A stretch of DNA of 64,000 nucleotides from Candidatus Moraniibacteriota bacterium (GTDB lineage Bacteria > Patescibacteriota > Minisyncoccia > Moranbacterales > UBA1568): assembly GCA_013334245.1 (NCBI GenBank), contig JAAXXZ010000002.1, forward strand, positions 21,166-85,165, written 5' to 3'. Of this stretch, positions 16,972 through 56,777 are shown in pieces. Both the position numbers and the translations under genes were made by a program. Every line of letters begins with the position of its first letter. Position 1 is the first letter of the stretch. The notes below the pieces were generated by a model. The model was given only the letters and a program-made list of their open reading frames with translations. It was not told where the DNA came from and did no database searches.

Positions 16972-17091
16972 ATTGGAGAGGTGGCCGAGCCCTGTATCGT
17001 ACGGTACAGGGCCGAGTGGTTGCCCGTTCGTCACAGCGAACGGGTCCGCGCACTCCGCAAGGCGGAGATGTCGCAGAAAGGTGCACGCCTG
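16972..17091 (+). pseudogene. tRNA-Ser 5'-half copy interrupted by hairpin insertions
   Basis: attggagaggtggccgag is identical to 17139-17156; resumes as ggccgagtggttg, then aaggtgcacgcctg (tRNA has aaggcgcgcgcttg). Confidence 0.8.
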
Positions 17092-17141: not shown

Positions 17142-17226
17142 GGAGAGGTGGCCGAGTGGTTGAAGGCGCGCGCTTGGAAAGCGCGTTAGGGGCAACTCTA
17201 CGCAGGTTCGAATCCTGTCCTCTCCG
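17142..17226 (+). tRNA. tRNA-Ser (anticodon GGA)
   Basis: GGAGAGG/CCTCTCC acceptor stem, anticodon loop TTGGAAA, long variable arm, GGTTCGAATCC T-arm; CCA not encoded. Confidence 0.95.
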
Positions 17227-17309
17227 CCTTCGCTACGCTGAAGCGTAGCTACGGCGTGACACAGTCCGCCGTAGAAACGCGAAAGCGAGGTTCGCAAGAG
17301 ATACACGAT

Positions 17310-17543
17310 ATGTATTACGTGTATAGTCTCAAATGCAAGGACGGGTATTATGTCGGGTGCACCGACGATTTGAAGGAACGCCTGAGCCGGCACCAGAACG
17401 GGTATGTTCCGGCGACCAAGAACCGTCTTCCGGTCGAATTGGATTTTTACGTCGCGATCCAAGAGAAATACAAGGCATTTGAATTCGAGAAATATCTCAA
17501 GTCCGGATCTGGTAGGGCATTCGTAATGAAGCATCTTCTTTAG
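17310..17543 (+). CDS. Small GIY-YIG nuclease family protein
   Basis: MYYVYSL..DGYYVGCT.DL..RL..H; A..FEKYLKSGSGR. Confidence 0.9.
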   Translation: MYYVYSLKCKDGYYVGCTDDLKERLSRHQNGYVPATKNRLPVELDFYVAIQEKYKAFEFEKYLKSGSGRAFVMKHLL

Positions 17544-17592
17544 AAATACGGCTCCCCTTAACGGGGAGTCGTATTTATTCGGTATTTGTGCA

Positions 17593-17706
17593 AGGATAGG
17601 ATTCGAAAGCCGGACCGTCAGAAGGCGGGAGGCGGGGTCGCGACCCCGAACGAGGTCTTCCGAGACCTAGCGTTCGGGAGTTGTGACAGAATCCTGTCCT
17701 CTCCGC
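17593..17706 (+). repeat. tRNA-Ser 3'-end-bounded structured element
   Basis: Starts with aggataggattcgaa (reverse complement of tRNA 3' end, 14/15) and ends with gaatcctgtcctctccgc (18-nt direct copy). Confidence 0.8.
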
Positions 17707-38023: not shown

Positions 38024-38052
38024 TTGACCAAAGGATTTTTTTGCTGTATACT
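38024..38052 (+). promoter_or_regulatory. Sigma70-type promoter of the giant surface protein gene
   Basis: TTGACC-17 nt-TATACT. Confidence 0.65.
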
Positions 38053-38122
38053 GTCTCTAGAGATATATGAACGGGTGGCCCGGATTCCTTTTCCGGGCAC
38101 CCGTTTTCTTTTTGCGGCAGCT

Positions 38123-41100
38123 ATGTTGGAGGGAAAAACAAAACACATTTCAAAAATTGCCTTGTATTCCGGAATTCTCGTGATTCTCGGGATTTTTTCG
38201 TTTTCTCAGGAGGCCTTGGCGGCTACTGGAATCAACAGTCAGATCAATTTTCAGGGCAAAGTGGTCAATACCGACGGCACGAACGTTGCGAACGGGAACT
38301 ACAACATGATATTTCGCGTCTATACGGCCTCATCCGGCGGATCGGCGATCTGGACGGAGACATGGAACTCGGGCACGTCGCAGGTCGGCGTTACGGACGG
38401 CATATTCCAGGTCGCGCTCGGAACGCATACATCGTTTCCCGGGTCTATCGACTTCAACACGGACAACATCTACCTCACGGTCGAGTTTAACGGCAACGGC
38501 GAAATGAGCCCGCGTATCCGATTCACTGCCGTTCCCTATGCCTTCAACGCGGAAAAGGTTTCGGGACTGACCGTGACGGATACGACGGGAACGCTGACCG
38601 TCGCGAACGGGAAAACGGTCTCATTCGCCGACGCGTTCACGACTTCCGGAGCCTATCCCCTTACGCTGACAACGACCGCCTCGACCAGCCTTACGCTTCC
38701 GACGACGGGGACGCTGGCGACGCTCGCCGGATCGGAACAGCTCACGAACAAGACCATCGGCTCCACGGGACTGGTATTTTCCGGGGCAACGACGGATATT
38801 GATGCTGCAACCGGGGAAGGGCTTGCGATTCAGGGTCGCGCCGCGTCCTCGTTTTCGACGACGTCCGGGACATTGACGTTCGAGTCTGCCGGAACAGGAA
38901 CAACGGGTATCGTGCAGGTAGGCTCGGGCGGATCCGGATCTGCGACACCGGACTATTTCGGTCTTGACGTGAAGTCGACGACTGGGGATCCCGCCGCCGG
39001 TTTCGAGGGAGCGATGTACTACAACACGTACGACAATAAATTCCGTTGTTATCAGGGTTCGGCCTGGGCGGATTGTATCGGGAGCGGATCGGGCGGCATG
39101 AGCATCGGTGGCACGATTACGAGCGCTACGCAGGGCTCAATCCTTTTCGCCGGATCGGCTGGTATTCTTGCTCAGGATAACGCGAACTTTTTTTGGGACG
39201 ATGCGAATGATTCCCTTGGCCTTGGCACAGCCACCCCGGCTGCCACCCTCGATGTCATTGGCGACGCTCATTTTGGCGACGTCACGAACTATACGGGTAT
39301 CGATGTTGACGGGGACCTTTCCTTTACCGGTACCGCTGACTATCTGGTCGGCGCTAATGACTATGCCTTTCGATATTCCGGAGACGAGGATTTCGGCATG
39401 TTCTTTAATGGCACCAGTGGGACGGTCGACTTACTCGGAGACGGACAGGCGCTCGCCCACCGGTTCAGTGTTGTTGGCGGCACATCATATATCAGCACGG
39501 CACTCGGCATCGGGACGACAGGACCGGATCATATGCTCGACGTCCTCGACGCGTCCAATCCGCAACTGCGCCTCACACATACCGATGGGACCGTCTATAC
39601 CGACTTCCAGACGACCTCTGCCGGAGACCTCACGATCACGCCGTCGGGCGGAGATATGACACTTGTCGGCAATCTTCTCCCGGGAGGCACTTCCGGCACC
39701 TACAACCTCGGTTCCGATACCGCCCGATGGGGTGACCTCTACCTCGACGGCGACACGATCCATATCGGCGCCTCCACAACTGACGAAGGCACCATCGGTT
39801 ACAATGCCTCGACGAACATTCTCTCTTTCGGCACCGATGCTACGACCAACGGCGACATCGCCTTCTTCACCGACGATCTGTATCTCGACAAGTCGAGCGG
39901 ATATGTGGGGATCAATACCACCGCTCCATCCGACCGTTTTCACCTCAAGGGTGGCACGCTACGTGTGGATGCGCCGTCGAATCCCACACTGACAGGTACC
40001 TACAATACGAGCGGATATGCACAAGGTGTCGCCGTGTCCGGTCGCTATGCCTATGTCGCCGATTCTACCGCAGGCCTCCACATCATCGACATATCCAATC
40101 CCGCAAGCCCGTCCCTTGTCGGTACCTACAATACGAGTGGAACTGCATACAGTGTCGCCGTGTCCGGCCGTTATGCCTATGTTGACGACTCCGCTTCAGG
40201 CCTCCACATCATCGACATATCCAATCCCGCAAGTCCGTCCCTTGTCGGTACCTACGATACGAGCGGATATGCATACAGTGTCGCTGTCTCCGGCCGCTAT
40301 GCCTATGTCGCCGATTCTACCGCAGGCCTCCACATCATCGACATATCCAATCCCGCAAGCCCGTCCCTTGTCGGTACCTACGATACGAGTGGAGACGCAA
40401 TCGGCGTCGCCGTGTCCGGTCGCTATGCCTATGTTGCCGATCATAGCTCAGGCCTCCACATCATCGACATATCCAATCCCGCAAGCCCGTCCCTTGTCGG
40501 TACCTACAATACGAGTGGAACTGCATACAGTGTCGCCGTGTCCGGTCGCTATGCCTATGTTGCCGATGTGGGTTCCGGCCTCCACATCATCGACATATCC
40601 AATCCCGCAAGCCCGTCCCTTGTCGGTACCTACGATACGAGCGGATATGCACAAGGTGTCGCCGTGTCCGGCCGCTATGCCTATGTTTCTGATTCTACCG
40701 CAGGCCTCCAAGTCATCGACATATCCAATCCCGCAAGCCCGTCCCTTGTCGGTACCTATAATACGAGCGGAGAAGCAATCGGCATCGCCGTGTCCGGCCG
40801 CTATGCCTATGTTTCCGATTCTACCGCAGGCCTCCAAGTCATCGACATCGGCGGTACCGATACCCATGCCCTCGTCGCCGGCGAAACCGAGACCGGCTTC
40901 CTCTCCGTCAATGGCAATGCCCAAGTGGCGCAGAACCTCTCGGTGAACGGGGGACTGTCTGTCGGTCCGGGTGGTATTCTCTCGCAGGGAGCGGGATCGG
41001 TGTATGCCAACGGTGCCAATACCGCCTTTACAGTGACACAGTATGGTACTGGCGACATTCTCAATCTTTTCGACGGCGCGACCGAAGTATTGACCGTTCT

Positions 41101-43810
41101 TGACGGTGGCAACGCCGGTATTGGCACTTCCTCCCCCGACCGTCGTCTCGACGTCCTCGACACCTCCAATCCGCAACTGCGCCTCACCTATACCGACGGC
41201 TCGGTCTATACCGACTTCCAGACGACCTCTGGTGGAGACCTCACGATCACGCCGTCGGGTGGGGATACCCGCGTTGCGGGAACCCTGGGCATTCTCGAAG
41301 GTGGCACCACACCTAGCTACTACACGATCTTCCAGGGAGGGGACCAGAGTGCCGACATTACCTATACCCTCCCGACCGGAGCTCCGGCGTCGAACGGGTA
41401 TGTGCTCTCGTCAACGACCGAGGGCGTGATGTCGTGGATTGCGGCGGGATCTGGCAGTACGACGCTTCAAACCGCTTATAATACCACTAGCGGTAACACC
41501 ATAACGACGACGACCGGAAGGAACGTCATCTTCACGTTGGCGGAACTCGCGACAGCGACCTCGTTTACGATCGAGAACCAGGATACGGGCGGTGCGGCGG
41601 CGGAGAAGATTACGAACTCCATCGCGTCCGGCACGCTGACTAACGGACTCCAGTTCGAGCAGACCGGTGCAGGCACGGTTACGAATGCCATAAGCATCCT
41701 GAGAACGGCGGGGACCATCACGAAAGGCATCGACATTTCCGGCACCGTGGGAACGGGCATTTCGATCGGCTCGAGCGTTACGACCGGCATCGCCTTCGCC
41801 GGGACGACGAATACGATCGATATGAACAATGCCTCGAACAGTACGCTTTCCATAACAAACTCGGGGACCGGTGTCGCGTCGGTCTCTGTCGAGGCGGGAG
41901 GTTCCTATACCGGCGCGGGCGCGGTGACGCTCTCATCTGCCGCTGCGACGGGTCTGACGATCGACTCCGGTACGACGGGCAACCTTGATATCGGCACCGG
42001 TGCCAATGCCAAGACCGTTACGATCGGAAACGCCACCGGAGCAACCGCGGTGAACATCAGTTCTGGGACGGCCGGTATCAAACTGCAGGCAGCCGGAACC
42101 GGCACTACCGGAACCGTGCAGATCGGTGAGGGCGGCCTTACGGGGTCGACGACGCCCGATCTCCTGGCTTTCGATACGAAGAGTGACTCGGGAAATCCGG
42201 CCGGAGCGGAAGGAAAGATGTACTATAACCTGTACGATCACAAGTTCCGCTGCTATCAGAACTCAGACTGGACGGATTGCGTGGGTATCACGTCCATCAA
42301 TACCACGTTGCCGGTGTTCCGTGCCGTGGGAACGTCGGCTACTGGAACCGGCGCGGTCAACCCGGGACTGCCTGCCGGGCACGTCGCGAACGATATCTTG
42401 ATCTTGTTCGTGCAGTCCGACAACGAGGCGGTGACGGCACCGGCCGGATATACGCAGATCGGCCCACAGCACGGCAGCGGTACGAACGCGACCGCCCTCG
42501 GGAACCGTTTGGCCATGTTCTGGAAACGTGATTCCGGATCGGAAAGCGCCCCGACCGTCGCGGACTCCGGGGACCACACTTTCGCGGTCATAGCGGCGTT
42601 CAGCGGTTGTCCGACGACGGGCGATCCGTTCAAATATATCGCTGGCGGCGAGAAATCGACGGCGAGCGTGACGGGAACGGCTAGCGGCGGACAGACGACC
42701 ATAGACAATTCGCTCGTCGTCGTGGCATTCGCCAACTCCGTCGACGGGGCGACATCGACGATGTATAGCGGTTGGACGAATGCGAGCCTTTCAAGTGTCA
42801 CGGAAATATTCGATACGGGTGTCGCGGATGGAAACGGCGGCAGTATCGGTATCATGACAGGCGCGAAGGCATCGGCTGGATCGGTCAGTTCGACGACGGT
42901 GACGGAGACCAGTGCCGTAGACGCTTATACGACCATAGCCCTTCTTCCTGCCGATGAAAAACAGATCGGAGCCTCGAACGAGGGTGTCGAGATACAGGAA
43001 TTCACCAATACCAACGCGACCGCGGATACGTGGGTCATGCCGTACGGCGCGCAGTCGGTGGAAATCATTGCAATCGGTGGCGGCGGTGCAGGAGGCCAGG
43101 GTATCGCTGCGACCGCCGCAGGCGGTGGTGGTGGTGGAGGTGGAGCCTATTCTAGAAAAGTTTTCGATGCATACGAATTGCCATCTACTCTGACGGTTAC
43201 CGTCGGCAAAGGCGGTGTCGGCGGCGCGACCAAATCCGCCGCGACGGCGTCGACCGTGACGGGAGGCGGTAGGACGCTTGTCAGCGCGGGATTCGGCGTG
43301 ATCGGAATCGCAGCTTCGTCTGGGAGCGGCGGCGGAGGCGGTGGCGGTGGTTCGGTGGGATCGCTGGCAGTCGCGGCAAACGGAAATCCCGGCGTACAGG
43401 GCCCTGGCGGCGGTGGCGCGGGCGGTGGAACGGGCGCGACGACCGGAGCTGTCGGAGGAAAAGGCTATGAAGGCGGTGGCGGTGGTGGAGGCGGAAAGAA
43501 CGCCGCAGGAACGGGAACCGGTGGGACCTCGGAACACGGTGGTGGTGGTGGAGGAGGGGGAGGTTCCGTGACGAACGGAGCCGTCGGTGGTGTCGGCGGC
43601 GCGGGTCAGGCTGGCGGTAGCAACGCGGGTGGGTCCGCGACGGCAACCGGTATGTTCACGCTGGGAGGGTCCGGGGGAGGAGGAAACTTCAGCACGGGAA
43701 CCGGCGGCAACGGCGCACAGCCGGGCGGTGGTGGCGGTGGAGGAGGTGCCACGACGAACAACGGTGGTAACGGCGCTGCCGGTGCGATCACAATCATCGT
43801 GCATTTCTAG
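38123..43810 (+). CDS. Giant secreted adhesin/fibre-like protein with LVIVD repeats and a Gly-rich C-terminus
   Basis: Signal peptide, INFQGK N-terminal domain, GIGT..P modules, 7 x 42-aa repeats, GGGGAGG-rich end; ATG 38123. Confidence 0.85.
39995..40848 (+). repeat. Seven tandem 126-bp coding repeats (LVIVD-type)
   Basis: ggtaccta..atacgag recurs at 126-bp spacing; unit [19 protein letters not shown]...[14 protein letters not shown]; last copy partial. Confidence 0.95.
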
Positions 43811-51180: not shown

Positions 51181-51232
51181 ATTCCGGTGTAGCTCAACCC
51201 AACGGGTCCCCTTCGGGGGCGGTAGGGCAGGG
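51181..51232 (+). pseudogene. tRNA-Asn 5'-half copy with a 22-nt double-hairpin insert in the D-loop
   Basis: attccggtgtagctca[acccaacgggtccccttcgggg]gcggtagggcaggg; degenerate second copy at 51496-51547. Confidence 0.8.
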
Positions 51233-51245
51233 TGAATTAAATGAT

Positions 51246-51608
51246 ATGAAGTATTTTGTTTATCTTCTGCAGAGCGAAAAAGATAAGCGTTTTTATATCG
51301 GTTCGACATCGGATCTTGAAAAAAGACTGACGTACCATAATCGCGGTTCGAACAAGTCGACACGGCATAGGAGACCGTTGAAGCTTGTACACGTCGAGGA
51401 GTACGATGAGAAGTCGGATGCGACGAAACGAGAATTTCTTCTGAAAAGTCCGAAAGGTTTTTTGGAAAAGAAGAGAATTATAGAAGATGTACGAAATTCC
51501 GGCGAACCTCAAACAAACGGGTTCCCTTCGGGTGTGGCAGAGCAGGAGAAAGGAGTTTCGTTTGATGAGAATGGTGATGTCTTGAAAGAGAATGATATTC
51601 CGGTGTAG
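51246..51608 (+). CDS. Small GIY-YIG nuclease family protein
   Basis: YFVYLLQS....FYIGST.DL..RL..HN.G, A..RE..LKS; stop codon lies inside tRNA-Asn. Confidence 0.9.
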   Translation: MKYFVYLLQSEKDKRFYIGSTSDLEKRLTYHNRGSNKSTRHRRPLKLVHVEEYDEKSDATKREFLLKSPKGFLEKKRIIEDVRNSGEPQTNGFPSGVAEQEKGVSFDENGDVLKENDIPV

Positions 51609-51670
51609 CTCAGCGGTAGAGCAGGGGACTGTTAATCCCTTGGTCGCAGGTTCGAATCCTGCCGCCGGAG
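51599..51670 (+). tRNA. tRNA-Asn (anticodon GTT)
   Basis: TCCGGTG/CGCCGGA acceptor stem, loop CTGTTAA, GGTTCGAATCC; CCA not encoded. Confidence 0.95.
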
Positions 51671-51754
51671 CCGACAAATGCAAGGCCACCCATTCGGGTG
51701 GCTTTTGCGTTTGCTTCGGCTCCGAGCGGAGCGAGTGAACGGTTTCACTCGCGT

Positions 51755-52051
51755 CAGGATTCGAAAGGCGGAGCGTCGTTCGGTCAGCAGACCGGACAGC
51801 GAGCCGGGGTCGAGGAATTATCCCGCGACGGCGGGATAATATTTGTGACCGAATCCGCCGCCGGATATTCAGATGTGCTTCCGTCAGGATGAGAACGCCG
51901 GAGCGTCTTTTGCCAGCAGGCAAAAGCGCTTGTCACGTCGCTCACGAACGACGTGATGAAACGGTGCCCAGCCCGAGGGGCGCGACGGCGCACCGAGAGG
52001 CGAGTCACGTCATTCGCGAACGACGTGGCGAGGGAGCATCCTGCCGCCGGA
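51755..52051 (+). repeat. Two tandem tRNA-Asn 3'-end-bounded structured elements
   Basis: caggattcgaa...gaatccgccgccgga (51755-51865) and caggatgagaac...atcctgccgccgga (51885-52051). Confidence 0.75.
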
Positions 52052-52375
52052 ACCCTGTGCCGTTTTCTGAATTTTCAGGGCATACTGCCGTTTACGAAAT
52101 ATGATGTTATTTGATTCTTCCAGTATTTCCAAAGATAACTTTACCGAAAGATTATCCGTCACGTTCAGGACAAGTCTATTCCCGAATTTCTCGTGCAACG
52201 GCCGAAGGAATTCATCTCCCCAGGAAGGGGAAAACGTGGTTACCCCGTCAAAATCGACGATGACATCTTGATTGTCTTTGACATCATTGAGAGTCGGAGT
52301 AAATGCTGAAAGCGCCTCTTTTCCGGCCTGGCGGGAGGTGAGGACAGTCCCGAATTTTTTCAGTTCGATGTTCAT
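52010..52375 (-). CDS. STAS-like (DUF4325) protein
   Basis: LTSRQAG, VDFDGV..FSPSWGDE. Confidence 0.8.
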   Translation of the reverse strand: MNIELKKFGTVLTSRQAGKEALSAFTPTLNDVKDNQDVIVDFDGVTTFSPSWGDEFLRPLHEKFGNRLVLNVTDNLSVKLSLEILEESNNIIFRKRQYALKIQKTAQGSGGRMLPRHVVRE

Positions 52376-52386
52376 ATCGGTCAATT

Positions 52387-53112
52387 CTAAAAAGTGATGT
52401 ACGTGAAGCATCCCGAAACGGTATCCGGCGTTTCCTGGATATCAAGGCCGGTCCTTTCCTTTGAGATTTCAACGGTCGCGTTACCGGTCTGAAAGAATAT
52501 GTCCATATTCGCGATCGGAGCGACTTTTCTCACGAACTTTAGTCCGTTGCCTCGTTCCTCGGGGGCTCTTCCGGAAAGAATCTCCGTGAACGCCGTCCTG
52601 AGCGCCTCCGCATCATTCTTCAGGGATGGCTTGACTCGCTTCAACGTTTTCAGGATGCCTTGTCCCTTGTCCGCGAGAACGATCTGTCCTTTTGCGACGT
52701 CATAGCCGAAAAATATGCCTCGGATATCCGGCCAGTTGCCGATATTATGATCGTAGGAGTTGTTCCCGATTTCGCTGGTAGCCGCCACGATAAGGGAAAA
52801 CGAGGCGCTGAGGTCGGGGTTTAACCGCAGATCTCGCTCCAGATTCTCGATTCTTGATTGAAATACGGCTGTGCTGGGACAGTAAAAGTCCGGAGGGGGC
52901 AGTGTTCCATTGGGAGCGTTCAGCCACTCTATCGCCTGGTTATACAAAGAGTCTCCCAGAAAAATTCGGATTTTTCGTACTGAAAAACGCCGACTCCCAC
53001 CCGGGGTCCGAATCGCGGTCAGTTTCCCGTTCTTATCCCACGCCCTGAGCGTGGTAGGGGTAACGCCGAGTATTTTCGCCGCCTTTCCTATCGATATGTA
53101 TTCTTCGTCCAT
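52387..53112 (-). CDS. MerR-type HTH fused to a HATPase-like domain
   Basis: SIGKAAKILGV...TLR.WD..G...RTPGGSRR; EIGNNSYDH, LADKGQGI, RGNGL. Confidence 0.8.
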   Translation of the reverse strand: MDEEYISIGKAAKILGVTPTTLRAWDKNGKLTAIRTPGGSRRFSVRKIRIFLGDSLYNQAIEWLNAPNGTLPPPDFYCPSTAVFQSRIENLERDLRLNPDLSASFSLIVAATSEIGNNSYDHNIGNWPDIRGIFFGYDVAKGQIVLADKGQGILKTLKRVKPSLKNDAEALRTAFTEILSGRAPEERGNGLKFVRKVAPIANMDIFFQTGNATVEISKERTGLDIQETPDTVSGCFTYITF

Positions 53113-53287
53113 ATTTCGGAAATATATTCACAGTGTATCAAAAGTTATAAATATTGTCAAAGAATATAAAAATATATAAATCTGAATATTATATATAAAT
53201 AAATCTTTACTCCCCGACATCTTCGGGAGGGAGTATGACTTCGATAATCCATCTTCTGATTTTGCGTAGCATTCGCATGGCGAATGA

Positions 53288-53983
53288 CTACTTCTCATTC
53301 TCGATTGCCACGTTCAGGAAGAAGATCGTTTCACTTTTCAGTTTCGCGCGGGCCCAGTCTTTTTGCGGTTCACCCAGGAGTTCTCCGAGGCCGTCGAGGA
53401 TATGCCGGTCGTCCATGTGCTCAAGCATATCGACGCACTTTTGCAGGGCCTCTTTGAAGGGGAGTCCGGAACGCTGCTCCGCTATTTCGCGGTTGATCTC
53501 CCAGCCTTGTTTGAAGAAATAATACACGTCGAAGACATCGCGGCTCGTTTTGCCGATCCGTTCGTACATGGCCATGAGCTTGTGCGCGAACATGTCCGGC
53601 TCGGTCATGACGAGCATGGAAATCCCCAGAAAGGTCTTCATCTCGTAGTTCGATCCGAACTGTCTTCGGTTGATCTCGATCTTTATATTCTGCGCTCCCG
53701 CCTCGTATGAAATAACGGTAAGCAGATTGAAGCGTTTTCTATGGGAATCCACGATGACCCCGTACGTTTCGGCGATTTTCTGGATTTTCCCGAACACGAA
53801 CTCCTCCTTGGAGTCGTCCAAGAGATCGAGATCGATATCGACCGAATATCGGTCGAGACCGTAGAAGAGCATCGCGGCCGTCCCGCCCTTGAATCCGAGG
53901 TACGGAGCGATAGTCGTATCGGTATAGATATCCTTGAGGATCCGGAGCAGGATGCTCTTATGTTTGGCGTAGTTCGCAGCCAT
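53288..53983 (-). CDS. AbiEii-family nucleotidyltransferase toxin (type IV TA)
   Basis: FKGGTA.ML.Y.L.R.SVDIDL, HKL.A, RDVFD. Confidence 0.9.
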   Translation of the reverse strand: MAANYAKHKSILLRILKDIYTDTTIAPYLGFKGGTAAMLFYGLDRYSVDIDLDLLDDSKEEFVFGKIQKIAETYGVIVDSHRKRFNLLTVISYEAGAQNIKIEINRRQFGSNYEMKTFLGISMLVMTEPDMFAHKLMAMYERIGKTSRDVFDVYYFFKQGWEINREIAEQRSGLPFKEALQKCVDMLEHMDDRHILDGLGELLGEPQKDWARAKLKSETIFFLNVAIENEK

Positions 53984-53984
53984 A

Positions 53985-54581
53985 TCATTTCGTGTTTATG
54001 AAGTTCCGGTGAAATTTCCGTACCTGTTTTTCCAGCCGCTTGTTGCCATATACGGGCAGGATTTCGAAAACCTTGTCCCAATCCAAGACATTCAGGCTAT
54101 CGAAGTAATATTCCTTGGTCACATACAACCGGTCCAGAAAAGCCCGCTCTTTCGTAGCCCAGGCGACGCCGTTTCTATGATCGATTCCCGTGGTATCGCT
54201 CAAGACGGAACTTTTCATGCGGACATAGTTGATTTTCTGACCGTTAGCCTCTATCTCGCGGTTCAGATACGATGCGACGAAGATATTCCCATAGTACTGG
54301 AAACTGACTCCTTCACGGGTCAAAACGGTCTCGAAGCCGATATAGGAGGGGGTATAGATCCGCGTCGCCAGCTCGTACCGGTCGTAGTTTTCGTCTTTGG
54401 CATACAGGCCATGGCGGACCCGTAACAGCTTCCCTGCGCGGATGTACTTCTTCAGGCGATTGGTGATGGTCGCACTCTCTGATTCGCCCCACAGCAAAGC
54501 CACGTCCTGAACGGAGAAGACGGTTTTCGATGATCGTAGCAGTATTTCCAGGAAATTTCCCTTTGAAGGTCTATTTTCCAT
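53985..54581 (-). CDS. AbiEi-like antitoxin/transcriptional regulator
   Basis: wHTH G.L.RVR.GLY, PSYIGFETVL, ATKERAFLD; directly upstream of abiEii. Confidence 0.85.
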   Translation of the reverse strand: MENRPSKGNFLEILLRSSKTVFSVQDVALLWGESESATITNRLKKYIRAGKLLRVRHGLYAKDENYDRYELATRIYTPSYIGFETVLTREGVSFQYYGNIFVASYLNREIEANGQKINYVRMKSSVLSDTTGIDHRNGVAWATKERAFLDRLYVTKEYYFDSLNVLDWDKVFEILPVYGNKRLEKQVRKFHRNFINTK

Positions 54582-54586
54582 ATATG

Positions 54587-54619
54587 TACTGATATGGTAC
54601 TTTAAGTACCCTTTCAGTA
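54587..54619. promoter_or_regulatory. Inverted repeat, putative AbiEi operator
   Basis: tactgatatggtactt-t-aagtaccctttcagta (14/16 match). Confidence 0.6.
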
Positions 54620-54651
54620 ACAATAGTAGCATATTTTGATACTGCGCGCAA

Positions 54652-54731
54652 GGACCCGGGTTTTTGATTGCTCAAGAAAGGCTTCACAAAGCGACACTTG
54701 CGACATCTTTGGGAGGGAGTATGATGATATG
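54652..54731 (+). repeat. Composite intergenic repeat shared with 53215-53238, 55675-55732 and 56541-56571
   Basis: Common core CGACATCTT; left arm repeated at 55675, right arm gggagggagtatga repeated at 53225 and 56551. Confidence 0.85.
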
Positions 54732-54782
54732 TAACCTTGGAAACGCACCTGACTTCTTTTCTGTTCTGGTATAAGGAATTAT

Positions 54783-55579
54783 ATGGAAAAACTTGAACTC
54801 AGGAATAGAAAAATCAGAAGATCGTCGGTATACTCGAGATGCCGGAGGGGCTAGTACATGGTACGGCTGTGGTTTTGCACGGTTTCGGTGGGATAAAGGA
54901 ACAGGATCATATTCTGAAGATGGCGGCCACATTCCGAGACAACGGATTTATCACGTTCAACTTTGATGCCACTAACTCTTTCGGCGAGAGTGAGGGGGAG
55001 TACTGGGACGCGCGGCTCGGGCTACACGCTGAGGATTTGGAGGATGTCGTGAAATGGGTGCGACAGCAGGTCTGGTTCAGGGAACCTCTGGCATTGACGG
55101 GGCACAGTATGGGCGGGTATGCCGTTGCTCGATACGCGGAACGATATCCGGACGAAGTCTCGATCCTTGTCCCGATCGCCCCGGTCGTTTCGGGCAAGCT
55201 TTCTTTTGAAGCGCATCATGAGGAAGACCCCGTCGCATTCGAGGAATTCAGGCGGCGTGGATTCAAAGAATCCGTGAGTCATACATCCGGTCGTCTCAAG
55301 CGTTCCTCGTGGGCGGAAATGGAGGAACGGCTGCATCATGATCTTTTGCCGGATGCGAAGAAACTCGTCATGCCGACGCTTCTGGTCGTCGGGTCGAAGG
55401 ACTTCTCGATCAGACCTCGGGATGTGCAATCACTCTACGACGCGCTTCCGGCGAGAAAAGACAACGAGATCCGGATTATCGAGGGGGCGCCGCACACGTA
55501 TCGAAGTCGGGAAGATGTCGATGCCTTGTATGAGATCATCTCGAACTGGTTGAAGGACTTGATGCTGAAGAAACATTAG
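54783..55579 (+). CDS. Alpha/beta hydrolase with an apparent 1-nt frameshift near the 5' end
   Basis: LHGFGG, GHSMGG, GSKD, GAPH; in-frame ORF starts 54839, upstream ATG 54783 is one base out of frame. Confidence 0.85.
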
Positions 55580-55790
55580 GAATAAGCCAGAAAAGGAGCC
55601 ATGCACCATTGTTGTGAACAGCTTCTATCCCGATTGAATCAATCAAAAACAACCAAAAACCCGGCCATCCACACGGACCCGGGTTTTTGATTGAGAAAAA
55701 AGGCTTCACAGAGCGACGCTTGCGACATCTTCTGAAAGTGAGCGCGTCATTATTAGCTCTTGAAAACAAGTGATTTCGTCTGTAGCTTGA

Positions 55791-56258
55791 TTATTTTATT
55801 GCATTCAATTCGACAGGAAAATTGTGAAGATTATCACATTCGCTGCAAATGTAGGTCATACTTCCAGCATAGCTCTCATTTAATCCTGTTATTGAAATAA
55901 CAAATGAGCCTGCTCCTTTTATCCTATGTTTTTGGTCAAAATAATTAATTACTCCTATTCTGTCCGGAGTAACAAAACCTTGAAGAATAAAAGCGACCTT
56001 TAGAATAGAGTTTGAAAAAACTTCATATTTACCGGTAATGCGTTTTCCATGCTGTGATATGGATAAAATACCTTTTTCGCCTTCGAACCACGGCTTTTGC
56101 CGGTCTTGATTGCCATACACAATTTCATATTTCCCTGAAATGTTCGGATAGAACTTCATAAACAGTGAATAATACCATTCAAATATCTTATTTTTTAGTA
56201 AATAAGCAATGAATGTGGCAAAGAGTGATGAAACGATGCCTGTAATGAAAGCGCTCAT
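55791..56258 (-). CDS. N-terminal TM plus beta-rich protein (possibly S-2TM-beta/Cap15-like)
   Basis: TM, then PNISGKY and successive beta strands; AT-rich. Confidence 0.55.
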   Translation of the reverse strand: MSAFITGIVSSLFATFIAYLLKNKIFEWYYSLFMKFYPNISGKYEIVYGNQDRQKPWFEGEKGILSISQHGKRITGKYEVFSNSILKVAFILQGFVTPDRIGVINYFDQKHRIKGAGSFVISITGLNESYAGSMTYICSECDNLHNFPVELNAIK

Positions 56259-56453
56259 AGGTTCGAAAATAGTAAAATAATTAAGCCAATACTATATATC
56301 ATACCCCAATTAAACCGAAATACAATTTTGCAGGAAAGTAATTTGGATGCCAAAATGAACTAGGCACTTTGCTCCCTTTGGGCCTAATTGTTTTAGGTAT
56401 TGGTTGCTGATATAAAAAAGGGTATACACATGAAGTGGCATACGCCTCTTTGG

Positions 56454-56489
56454 TTAATTGCTGGTCAAGCTGGCACCGGCACCGCCCAT
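56454..56489 (-). pseudogene. Degenerate micropeptide ORF MGGAGASLTSN
   Basis: Same length and MGGA start as 60577-60612; flanks resemble 60452-60487. Confidence 0.5.
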
Positions 56490-56777
56490 AAGGGATGCCT
56501 TTTTGGCGCAATCCTCGATTTTGAAACAAATCTGCCTTTTCGACATCTTCGGGAGGGAGTATGATGATATGAACTCCGAAATGTACAAATATCTGTTCCG
56601 GATTAATTCATATTTTTCCGGCCCGGAAGGCATAAGGGGGGGGTGCTGACGGGACAAAATGTACCTGATGCATTTTCTGAGATCAAAATGAGAAAGATGT
56701 TAATGATTTCTTTGCCTCATTAAATTAGCTTTGACTAAGGCTAGTTTGGGGCGTAGAATCTATAAAATCATTACTTT

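Follow-up and report, generated by a model that had tools for sequence, protein, structure and literature searches.

A covarying core between tRNA-matched arms and tails behind tRNA genes of Patescibacteria

Two segments of about 110 nt, one behind a tRNA-Ser gene and one behind a tRNA-Asn gene of Candidatus Moraniibacteriota bacterium, raise the question of whether they represent an RNA gene or a piece of mobile DNA. The segments are found at positions 17593–17706 and 51755–51865 of a 64,000-nt stretch of contig JAAXXZ010000002.1 (hereafter, the window). Both contain the sequences GGATTCGAAAG[C/G]CGGA, GAG[G/C]CGGGGTCG, and TTGTGAC[A/C]GAATCC, and both terminate in the 3′ strand of their cognate tRNA; the first-pass annotation of the window had described this shared scaffold, and its segments, motifs, and tRNA ends are confirmed here. 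The two loci contain one type of unit, defined by an arm antisense to the T-loop and 3′ strand of the tRNA, a constant core forming a three-way junction, and a copy of the tRNA 3′ end beginning at C56. The core pattern matches twice in the 1.12-Mb genome and not at all in the reversed genome. The coordinates given earlier hold for the scaffold, but the unit extends further 5′, as in the Asn copy, where the arm spans 51716–51765 and is interrupted by an inserted hairpin. The parts of the two loci are as follows.

17142–17228, + strand: tRNA-Ser(GGA), host gene; C56 is 17209 and the repeated 3′ end is 17210–17227
17229–17543, + strand: separate cassette between the tRNA end and the hairpin, outside the unit proper, with a 77-aa GIY-YIG ORF (17310–17543; Pfam PF01541, E 7.8e-13)
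17544–17576, + strand: terminator-like hairpin 5′ of the Ser arm (predicted fold)
17587–17607, + strand: Ser antisense arm (sequence and fold)
17609–17688, + strand: Ser conserved core (P2 17609–17633, GGG linker, P3 17637–17687)
17689–17706, + strand: duplicated tRNA-Ser 3′ end, exact over 18 nt
51599–51672, + strand: tRNA-Asn(GTT), host gene; C56 is 51653
51675–51713, + strand: Asn trailer and terminator-like hairpin, the tip of the fold-back (predicted fold)
51716–51765, + strand: Asn antisense arm in two parts, 51716–51729 and 51755–51765
51767–51849, + strand: Asn conserved core (P2 51767–51805, GGG linker, P3 51809–51849)
51850–51865, + strand: duplicated tRNA-Asn 3′ end, one base deleted
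51877–52051, + strand: second, sister unit behind tRNA-Asn

The Ser insert is 479 bp long, the 3′ end at 17210–17227 recurring without change at 17689–17706. Its sole ORF is the GIY-YIG gene, and no tyrosine integrase is encoded. The cassette carrying this ORF opens with a hairpin leader where tRNA-Ser ends. Within the arm, 17593–17604 pairs with tRNA positions 57–68, and an invariant GAA (17605–17607) complements T54–C56. The Ser P2 contains a GA/GA internal loop and a variable hairpin, and P3 carries a variable hairpin of its own. The first Asn unit is 197 bp long and non-coding; its tail repeats 51653 onward with one base (T63) missing. The Asn arm, split by a side hairpin at 51731–51752, forms the foot of a fold-back reaching the tRNA T-loop. 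In the sister unit the arm is 5′-truncated, the P2 motif is the same, P3 is different, and a third copy of the tRNA-Asn 3′ end follows.

Several further features of the genome were observed. The sister core has an extra nested hairpin pair, and sister cores with a common P2 motif and a different P3 also occur in G000 (C14 and C20) at Lys-CTT, Arg-GCG, and Arg-TCG. At least two more unrelated cores are found behind other tRNAs of the window's genome. Fragments of tRNA 5′ ends whose loops are replaced by inserted hairpins are located at 16975–17052, 51183–51231, and 51498–51546; at Asn they flank a GIY-YIG ORF (51246–51608) whose end falls inside the intact tRNA gene. Behind tRNA-Asn, an island-like stretch (52010–56570) contains STAS-like, MerR-HTH, AbiEii/AbiEi toxin-antitoxin, and hydrolase genes, and three copies of a 24-nt repeat (53215, 54701, and 56541), each just 5′ of genes. 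A 1928-aa ORF at 38024–43810 contains seven 126-bp tandem repeats and glycine-rich repeats.

Folding the + strands as RNA gives z-scores of −6.3 (Ser) and −4.5 (Asn), with none of 200 shuffles as good, while the − strands reach −2.6 and −2.7. In the three-way junction, P1 is the arm paired with the duplicated tail and is followed by a GAAA linker. P2 pairs G-S-C with G-S′-C and contains a GGA/GA internal loop and a variable hairpin, followed by a GGG linker; P3 pairs GTCG with GTGAC and bears a second variable hairpin. The first-pass annotation had missed the second stem, G[C/G]C with G[G/C]C, which covaries between the two window copies. A kink-turn is defined by a 3-nt bulge, and this reading of the tandem GA pairs was set aside as the P2 bulge is 1 nt.

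Further copies, which the annotation had called for, were sought with a search pattern that leaves the arm and tail free. Among 100 relatives, 18 sites were found in 12 genomes (reversed control, 0), and 10 of the 64 parts of a genome contig collection yielded 124 loci, from which about 880 stretches are estimated overall. By their record labels, these 124 loci comprise 99 from Patescibacteria/CPR, 9 from Elusimicrobia, 2 from Gammaproteobacteria, and 14 labeled only “bacterium.” After removal of duplicates 142 distinct copies remained. A tRNA or tmRNA gene is found upstream on the same strand, at a median distance of 63 nt, in 111 of the 131 copies with at least 200 nt of upstream sequence, and represents 33 anticodon types plus tmRNA without amino-acid preference. 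Some units are located kilobases from a tRNA (L018). In one locus (L003, from G007), the core is within a truncated upstream tRNA-Lys copy, 220 nt before the intact tRNA-Lys.

A covariance model of the core (R1) gives five matches in the window's genome, namely the two copies and three sister cores. At least nine of 151 genomes of the phylum are positive, seven of these with 5–7 matches; the survey is rough, as scoring was limited to 25 candidates for each genome and the counts include sister cores, and the figure is a lower bound. A tRNA precedes 26 of the 28 R1 hits examined in these genomes. The distribution is thus patchy and multi-copy, and most genomes searched are without the core. A comparison with Rfam 15 identified no family for the core: at the gathering score only the tRNAs match, and scans by E-value returned weak, unrelated matches (best E 0.026). 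Two strict patterns gave no match in viral contigs, and none of the 79 loci scored with R1, out of 119 viral loci from a loose pattern, matched the model. Phage records contained no core and plasmid records one partial match of 42 nt. A literature search, largely of openly accessible papers, returned no account of the core or of such units in Patescibacteria.

To what extent is this fold conserved? In 99 distinct model-aligned copies, 94.8% of cells pair and 15 of 17 pairs show two-sided changes; these values were reached by none of 500 shuffles, and slid controls drop to 31–45%. The alignment was fitted to the model and some P2 and P3 columns are fixed by the search pattern, but the pairs that the pattern leaves free agree. 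The S/S′ pair, which is among these, is complementary in 141 of 142 copies (98 C-G, 43 G-C), and the first P2 hairpin pairs Watson–Crick in 135 and 133 of 142. The covariation that the first-pass annotation had named as a check is therefore present.

Mismatches in the stems are informative about the strand. G-T wobbles outnumber A-C (95 vs 28), and the folding strand is therefore the tRNA strand; in the long fold-backs alone the corresponding counts are noisy and uninformative (62 vs 47). Loops of the variable hairpins are constrained in type (of 252, 71 AGCA-type, 53 GACG-type, 22 cGNAg, 8 GNRA, and 1 cUNCGg), whereas loops of the neighboring terminator-like hairpins are diverse. The sequence GC-GNA-GC occurs 20 times on the + strand and once on the − strand, and GCGNAGC is described as a very stable DNA mini-hairpin (PMC13037366). 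By this analogy the GNA triloops lean towards DNA. The commonest loops, AGCA-type and GACG-type, belong to the classic types of neither DNA nor RNA, and leave the choice between DNA and RNA undecided.

The arm and the tail both follow the adjacent tRNA. In the 110 copies with an upstream tRNA, a full tail, and no N, the arm forms 5.9 of 8 possible Watson–Crick pairs with positions 59–66 of the adjacent tRNA, compared with 4.09 when tRNAs are permuted (maximum 4.45 in 2000 permutations), and tail identity is 12.6 of 16 as against 7.8 permuted. These results, together with the fold scores, bear out the earlier proposal of a constant structured core with target-matched arms. The last arm bases track the T-loop variant (CGATT with AATC in 31 copies, CAAGT with ACTT in 8, CAAAT with ATTT in 5), and in 27 of the 110 they are GA, giving tandem G-A pairs. 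The repeat starts at C56, with no 5′ extension in 108 of 110, a value to which the search pattern itself contributes. Of the 110 tails, 55 are exact over 16 nt and 50 over at least 18 nt, and in 38 of these 50 the exact repeat stops at 18–21 nt, the mature tRNA end. Of 58 imperfect tails, 35 have their first mismatch at positions 56–60. When the tail departs from the gene, the arm is a better match to the gene in 28 copies and to the tail in 3, with 13 ties. Among 76 loci scorable for CCA, it is present in the tail only in 8 and in the gene only in 4.

In 51 of 89 loci the arm is preceded by a hairpin and T-run. A crude alignment scored 61 of 104 loci as having a long imperfect fold-back that extends from the T-loop across the trailer and hairpin and has the arm at its foot, and in several other loci a side hairpin interrupts it, as in the Asn copy of the window. 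Among the 45 tRNAs of the window's genome, an arm is located downstream of 10 and upstream of 2 (one being a neighbor's arm), and these arms are trailed by several different cores. In four loci of the same genus (L145, L147, L149, and L151), a tRNA 3′ end, hairpin, and antisense arm occur with no core, sometimes at the head of an island-like region, and fold-back arms may be common to the tRNA integration sites of these relatives. Two recurrent short palindromic inserts were also observed inside the duplicated tail, near 58–65, in unrelated genomes (L024, L044, L053, and L080; L001, L012, L060, and L072).

It has been known since 1978 that E. coli carries repeats linked to tRNA genes, and RtT RNA (rttR), which we take to be Rfam RF00391, belongs with these repeats. 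These tRNA-linked repeats (TLRs), of which 22 have been counted, are defined by an 18–19-bp repeat of the tRNA 3′ end, and no function is given for them in the 2021 account except for the three rRNA-linked TLRs studied there (PMC8144298). Like the units described here, the TLRs, including the 178-bp tyrT/tyrV repeats and RtT, are non-coding, directly follow a tRNA gene, often as tandem copies, and end by repeating 18–19 nt of that gene's 3′ end (PMC8144298). In E. coli K-12 the tyrT/tyrV unit opens with an antisense arm, GCGGGGAAGGATGAGAA, and the layout, including the GA-variant arm, is the same. A tandem GA motif has been reported in RtT (PMC7657543, PMC8250186). The core is, however, unrelated to that of RtT: Rfam gives no RtT match even at E up to 10, and R1 scores the RtT repeats at only 5.2 bits. 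In contrast to the E. coli repeats, one core serves 33 anticodons and tmRNA, and its hosts are Patescibacteria and Elusimicrobia. Both window copies are found on the same strand behind a tRNA gene, with 3′ identity that is exact over 18 nt at Ser and includes a 1-nt deletion at Asn. The units therefore conform to the architectural definition of a TLR without belonging to the RtT family. The layout is not new in kind, being that of the E. coli tRNA-linked repeats and RtT (PMC8144298); what is new is a strongly covarying, uncatalogued core within a known and unexplained architecture.

Comparison of related genomes revealed that the unit is gained and lost at tRNA genes. A 62.6-kb contig of run X3, with a flank about 93% identical, joins 17209 to 17689 and thus represents an exact empty Ser site, skipping precisely the 479 bases of the insert. 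A contig of run X4 retains the Ser hairpin, arm, and core start, while 1651 other bases replace the GIY-YIG cassette; at Asn an X4 contig joins 51707 to 51877, and so the sister unit is present and the first Asn unit absent. The empty Ser allele could be the result of deletion between the 18-nt repeats instead of the pre-insertion state. Cores also change behind a fixed arm. At tRNA-Asn, hairpin and arm are shared by G002 and G004 but lead into different cores, and at tRNA-Ser G004 has the arm with no core and G002 a GIY-YIG cassette with no core. Conversely, G178 contains a near-identical core at tRNA-Leu and tRNA-Met, each with an arm and tail matching its own tRNA. Core identity is 0.65 within genomes (44 pairs) and 0.53 between genomes (334 pairs). 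Copies in the same genome are often very divergent though intact, and this sequence divergence suggests long retention. In the contigs of X1, which may be the run from which the window derives, and of X2, assemblies that drop rare forms, no circle or excision joint of either unit was seen. In four genomes of the same genus (L143–L146), a long insert seems to interrupt tRNA-Asn near the anticodon, presumably a sequence similar to a group I intron with an endonuclease ORF; the window gene is uninterrupted.

Our preferred explanation, to which we assign a probability of roughly 45%, is a non-autonomous, gene-less mini-element that folds as a single strand, registers on a tRNA gene through its arm, and is acted on by an enzyme in trans. 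The moving unit would consist of a replacement tRNA 3′ end, trailer hairpin, arm, and core. Entry would occur by a crossover inside the 17–21-nt repeat, pushing the old 3′ end downstream in the manner of tRNA-targeted islands, with cutting and joining performed by the candidate enzyme. The arm of the folded single strand could pair with either 3′-end copy, and as the invariant GAA pairs with T54–C56, which only the intact gene retains, the intact target would be favored. The displaced tail would then often become scarred near positions 56–60, and cores would likely be exchanged between arms via short T-loop homologies at both ends. The precise presence and absence of the unit, the different cores behind the same arm, and the near-identical cores at different tRNAs of one genome all favor the mini-element. 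So do the match of arm and tail to the adjacent tRNA, the patchy and multi-copy distribution, the greater likeness of cores within genomes, the better fit of the arm to the gene than to the tail, the scarring of tails at 56–60, the GNA loops, and the island-like pairing of a gene with a displaced 3′ fragment. Against it are the lack of a travelling enzyme, the lack of a circle in the X1 and X2 contigs, the possible origin of the empty Ser allele by deletion, and the persistence of divergent intact copies; most loops are not classic DNA loops, G-T wobbles are common, and a repeat ending at the mature tRNA end fits a role at the RNA level. Support for target matching and turnover is good, and that for the mechanism is circumstantial. 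The first-pass suggestion of a guide or a non-autonomous element gains support in its second half from the presence and absence in relatives; a role as nuclease guide is conjectural, and the neighboring GIY-YIG genes are not carried along with the core.

The mini-element can be compared with several mobile systems. In IS200/IS605 peel-and-paste transposition and in REP/REPIN-RAYT systems, folded ssDNA pairs element-encoded bases with the target and non-autonomous copies are moved in trans. Folded ssDNA, target pairing, and mobility in trans are proposed here as well, but the guide would be 8–20 nt and tRNA-specific rather than a tetranucleotide, and no linked HUH transposase was seen. A Y1 transposase (PF01797) is a doubtful partner, with matches in one of the five multi-copy genomes searched, which do not include G000. 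A MITE does not fit, as the inverted ends change with each target tRNA and no transposase-coding parent was found. A gene with a displaced 3′ fragment is the signature of a genomic island in Islander (PMC4383910). As in tRNA/tmRNA islands, the gene is restored, the displaced fragment has the same orientation, the crossover region is the T-loop/junction, and tandem arrays and damaged fragments occur (PMC4383910). The units differ from Islander islands in their size of about 150–200 bp, far below the 2-kb filter, in having no integrase, and in damage located at 56–60 rather than 3 bp before the discriminator (PMC4383910).

The main rival is an RtT-like small RNA, co-transcribed with the tRNA and freed by tRNA 3′ processing. 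Although a serious alternative, it is on balance unlikely. The arm and tail would pair as an acceptor/T helix that resembles that of a tRNA and terminates in a 3′ NCCA, with a protein-binding core as its cap, and copies would turn over by ordinary recombination between short repeats. The layout equals that of RtT down to the arm variant GGATGA-GAA and its tandem GA, and this nearest relative is annotated as a processed RNA; the rRNA-linked TLRs are likewise transcribed and processed (PMC8144298). An RNA would also account for the missing enzyme and circle, the stop of the repeat at the mature tRNA end, the persistent divergent copies, and strong covariation that includes wobble pairs. The hairpin and T-run that often precede the arm argue against co-transcription, yet in the window neither hairpin has a T-run on the + strand strong enough to pass the terminator scan, and the consensus scan of the Ser hairpin (17544–17576) is positive on the − strand only. 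Other observations are less easily accommodated: only half of the tails match exactly over 16 nt, the arm agrees with the gene rather than with its own tail, and the unit is absent from most genomes searched. Neither the scarred tails nor the rarity of UUCG and GNRA tetraloops is explained by an RNA.

A second alternative is that the unit is the non-autonomous partner of small, tRNA-associated GIY-YIG nucleases of the Ssn kind, which would bind the folded ssDNA and nick it at the T-loop. The Ssn proteins, small nucleases of the GIY-YIG type, cleave ssDNA beside hairpins (PMC11893778). In both systems small single-domain GIY-YIG genes are located by hairpin-rich DNA proposed to act as ssDNA (the NTS/SRM hairpins of Chenal et al. 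2025, PMC11893778), and both window loci have a small GIY-YIG ORF (Pfam PF01541) within 600 nt. Beyond the window the linkage is weak. Such ORFs occur in 7 of the 74 loci with at least 500 nt on each side, two of the seven being those of the window, by a profile made from 16 local ORFs that may miss distant ones; a further 26 loci gave 0 of 26. At the genome level there is no enrichment: the window GIY-YIG is matched in six of nine model-positive genomes and in 84 of 151 overall, and in the multi-copy genomes G224 and G241 the matches are long-frame only. SRMs are single hairpins of 20–50 nt (PMC11893778), a pattern that does not describe the core, and their consensus matches one of 142 units, on the opposite strand. 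The term “tRNA” appears 0 times in the main text of PMC11893778. Since linkage is weak, enrichment is absent, and the Ser cassette and the core are gained and lost independently, GIY-YIG was rejected as a dedicated partner, and a partnership of this kind is improbable. The GIY-YIG cassettes seem to have colonized the same tRNA genes independently, and no partner enzyme was found linked to the unit.

It is very improbable that the units are inactive remnants of larger islands, in which an attL-side hairpin and arm became fused to attR after loss of the body. Coreless arms do precede island-like DNA in relatives (L144, L145, and L149), and the units located kilobases from a tRNA fit such an origin. 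The core, however, is contiguous, size-constrained, and absent from the viral contigs and phage records searched (the plasmid records holding the one partial match), and its covariation across distant genomes largely refutes this reading.

Least likely of all, and highly doubtful, is a cis-acting attenuator of tRNA maturation, in which the read-through arm would invade the pre-tRNA T-arm and acceptor strand unless captured by the tail. On paper the arm could pair with the T-arm of the pre-tRNA, and in the predicted minimum-energy fold of the Asn transcript the tRNA unfolds and pairs with the arm. By calculation, the arm of 51 of 52 copies also binds more strongly to an intact T-loop than to its own junction, by about 1.5 kcal/mol, but this gain is entailed by the constant GAA and is not independent evidence. 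The unit is dispensable between close relatives and shows no amino-acid preference, and during transcription the tRNA folds first.

At minimum, the units represent an uncatalogued family of structured nucleic acids in Patescibacteria, one whose copies can be misread as attachment sites of prophages. The family offers what the E. coli repeats do not, namely one covarying core on more than 30 tRNA tails, alleles with and without the insert, and exchange of cores while the arm stays the same. With one core on many tails, natural alleles, and core swaps, the question of RNA gene versus mobile DNA becomes directly testable. A bolder and rather unlikely form of the mini-element explanation is a naturally reprogrammable, gene-less ssDNA element, in which the constant core would recruit a recombinase or nuclease in trans and the exchangeable arm would guide it to any tRNA or tmRNA gene. 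If that were true, the tRNA-linked repeats of E. coli would be members of an unrecognized class of guide-targeted mini-elements, and if the arm is a guide, the unit would constitute a programmable system for insertion at tRNA genes, and a very small one.
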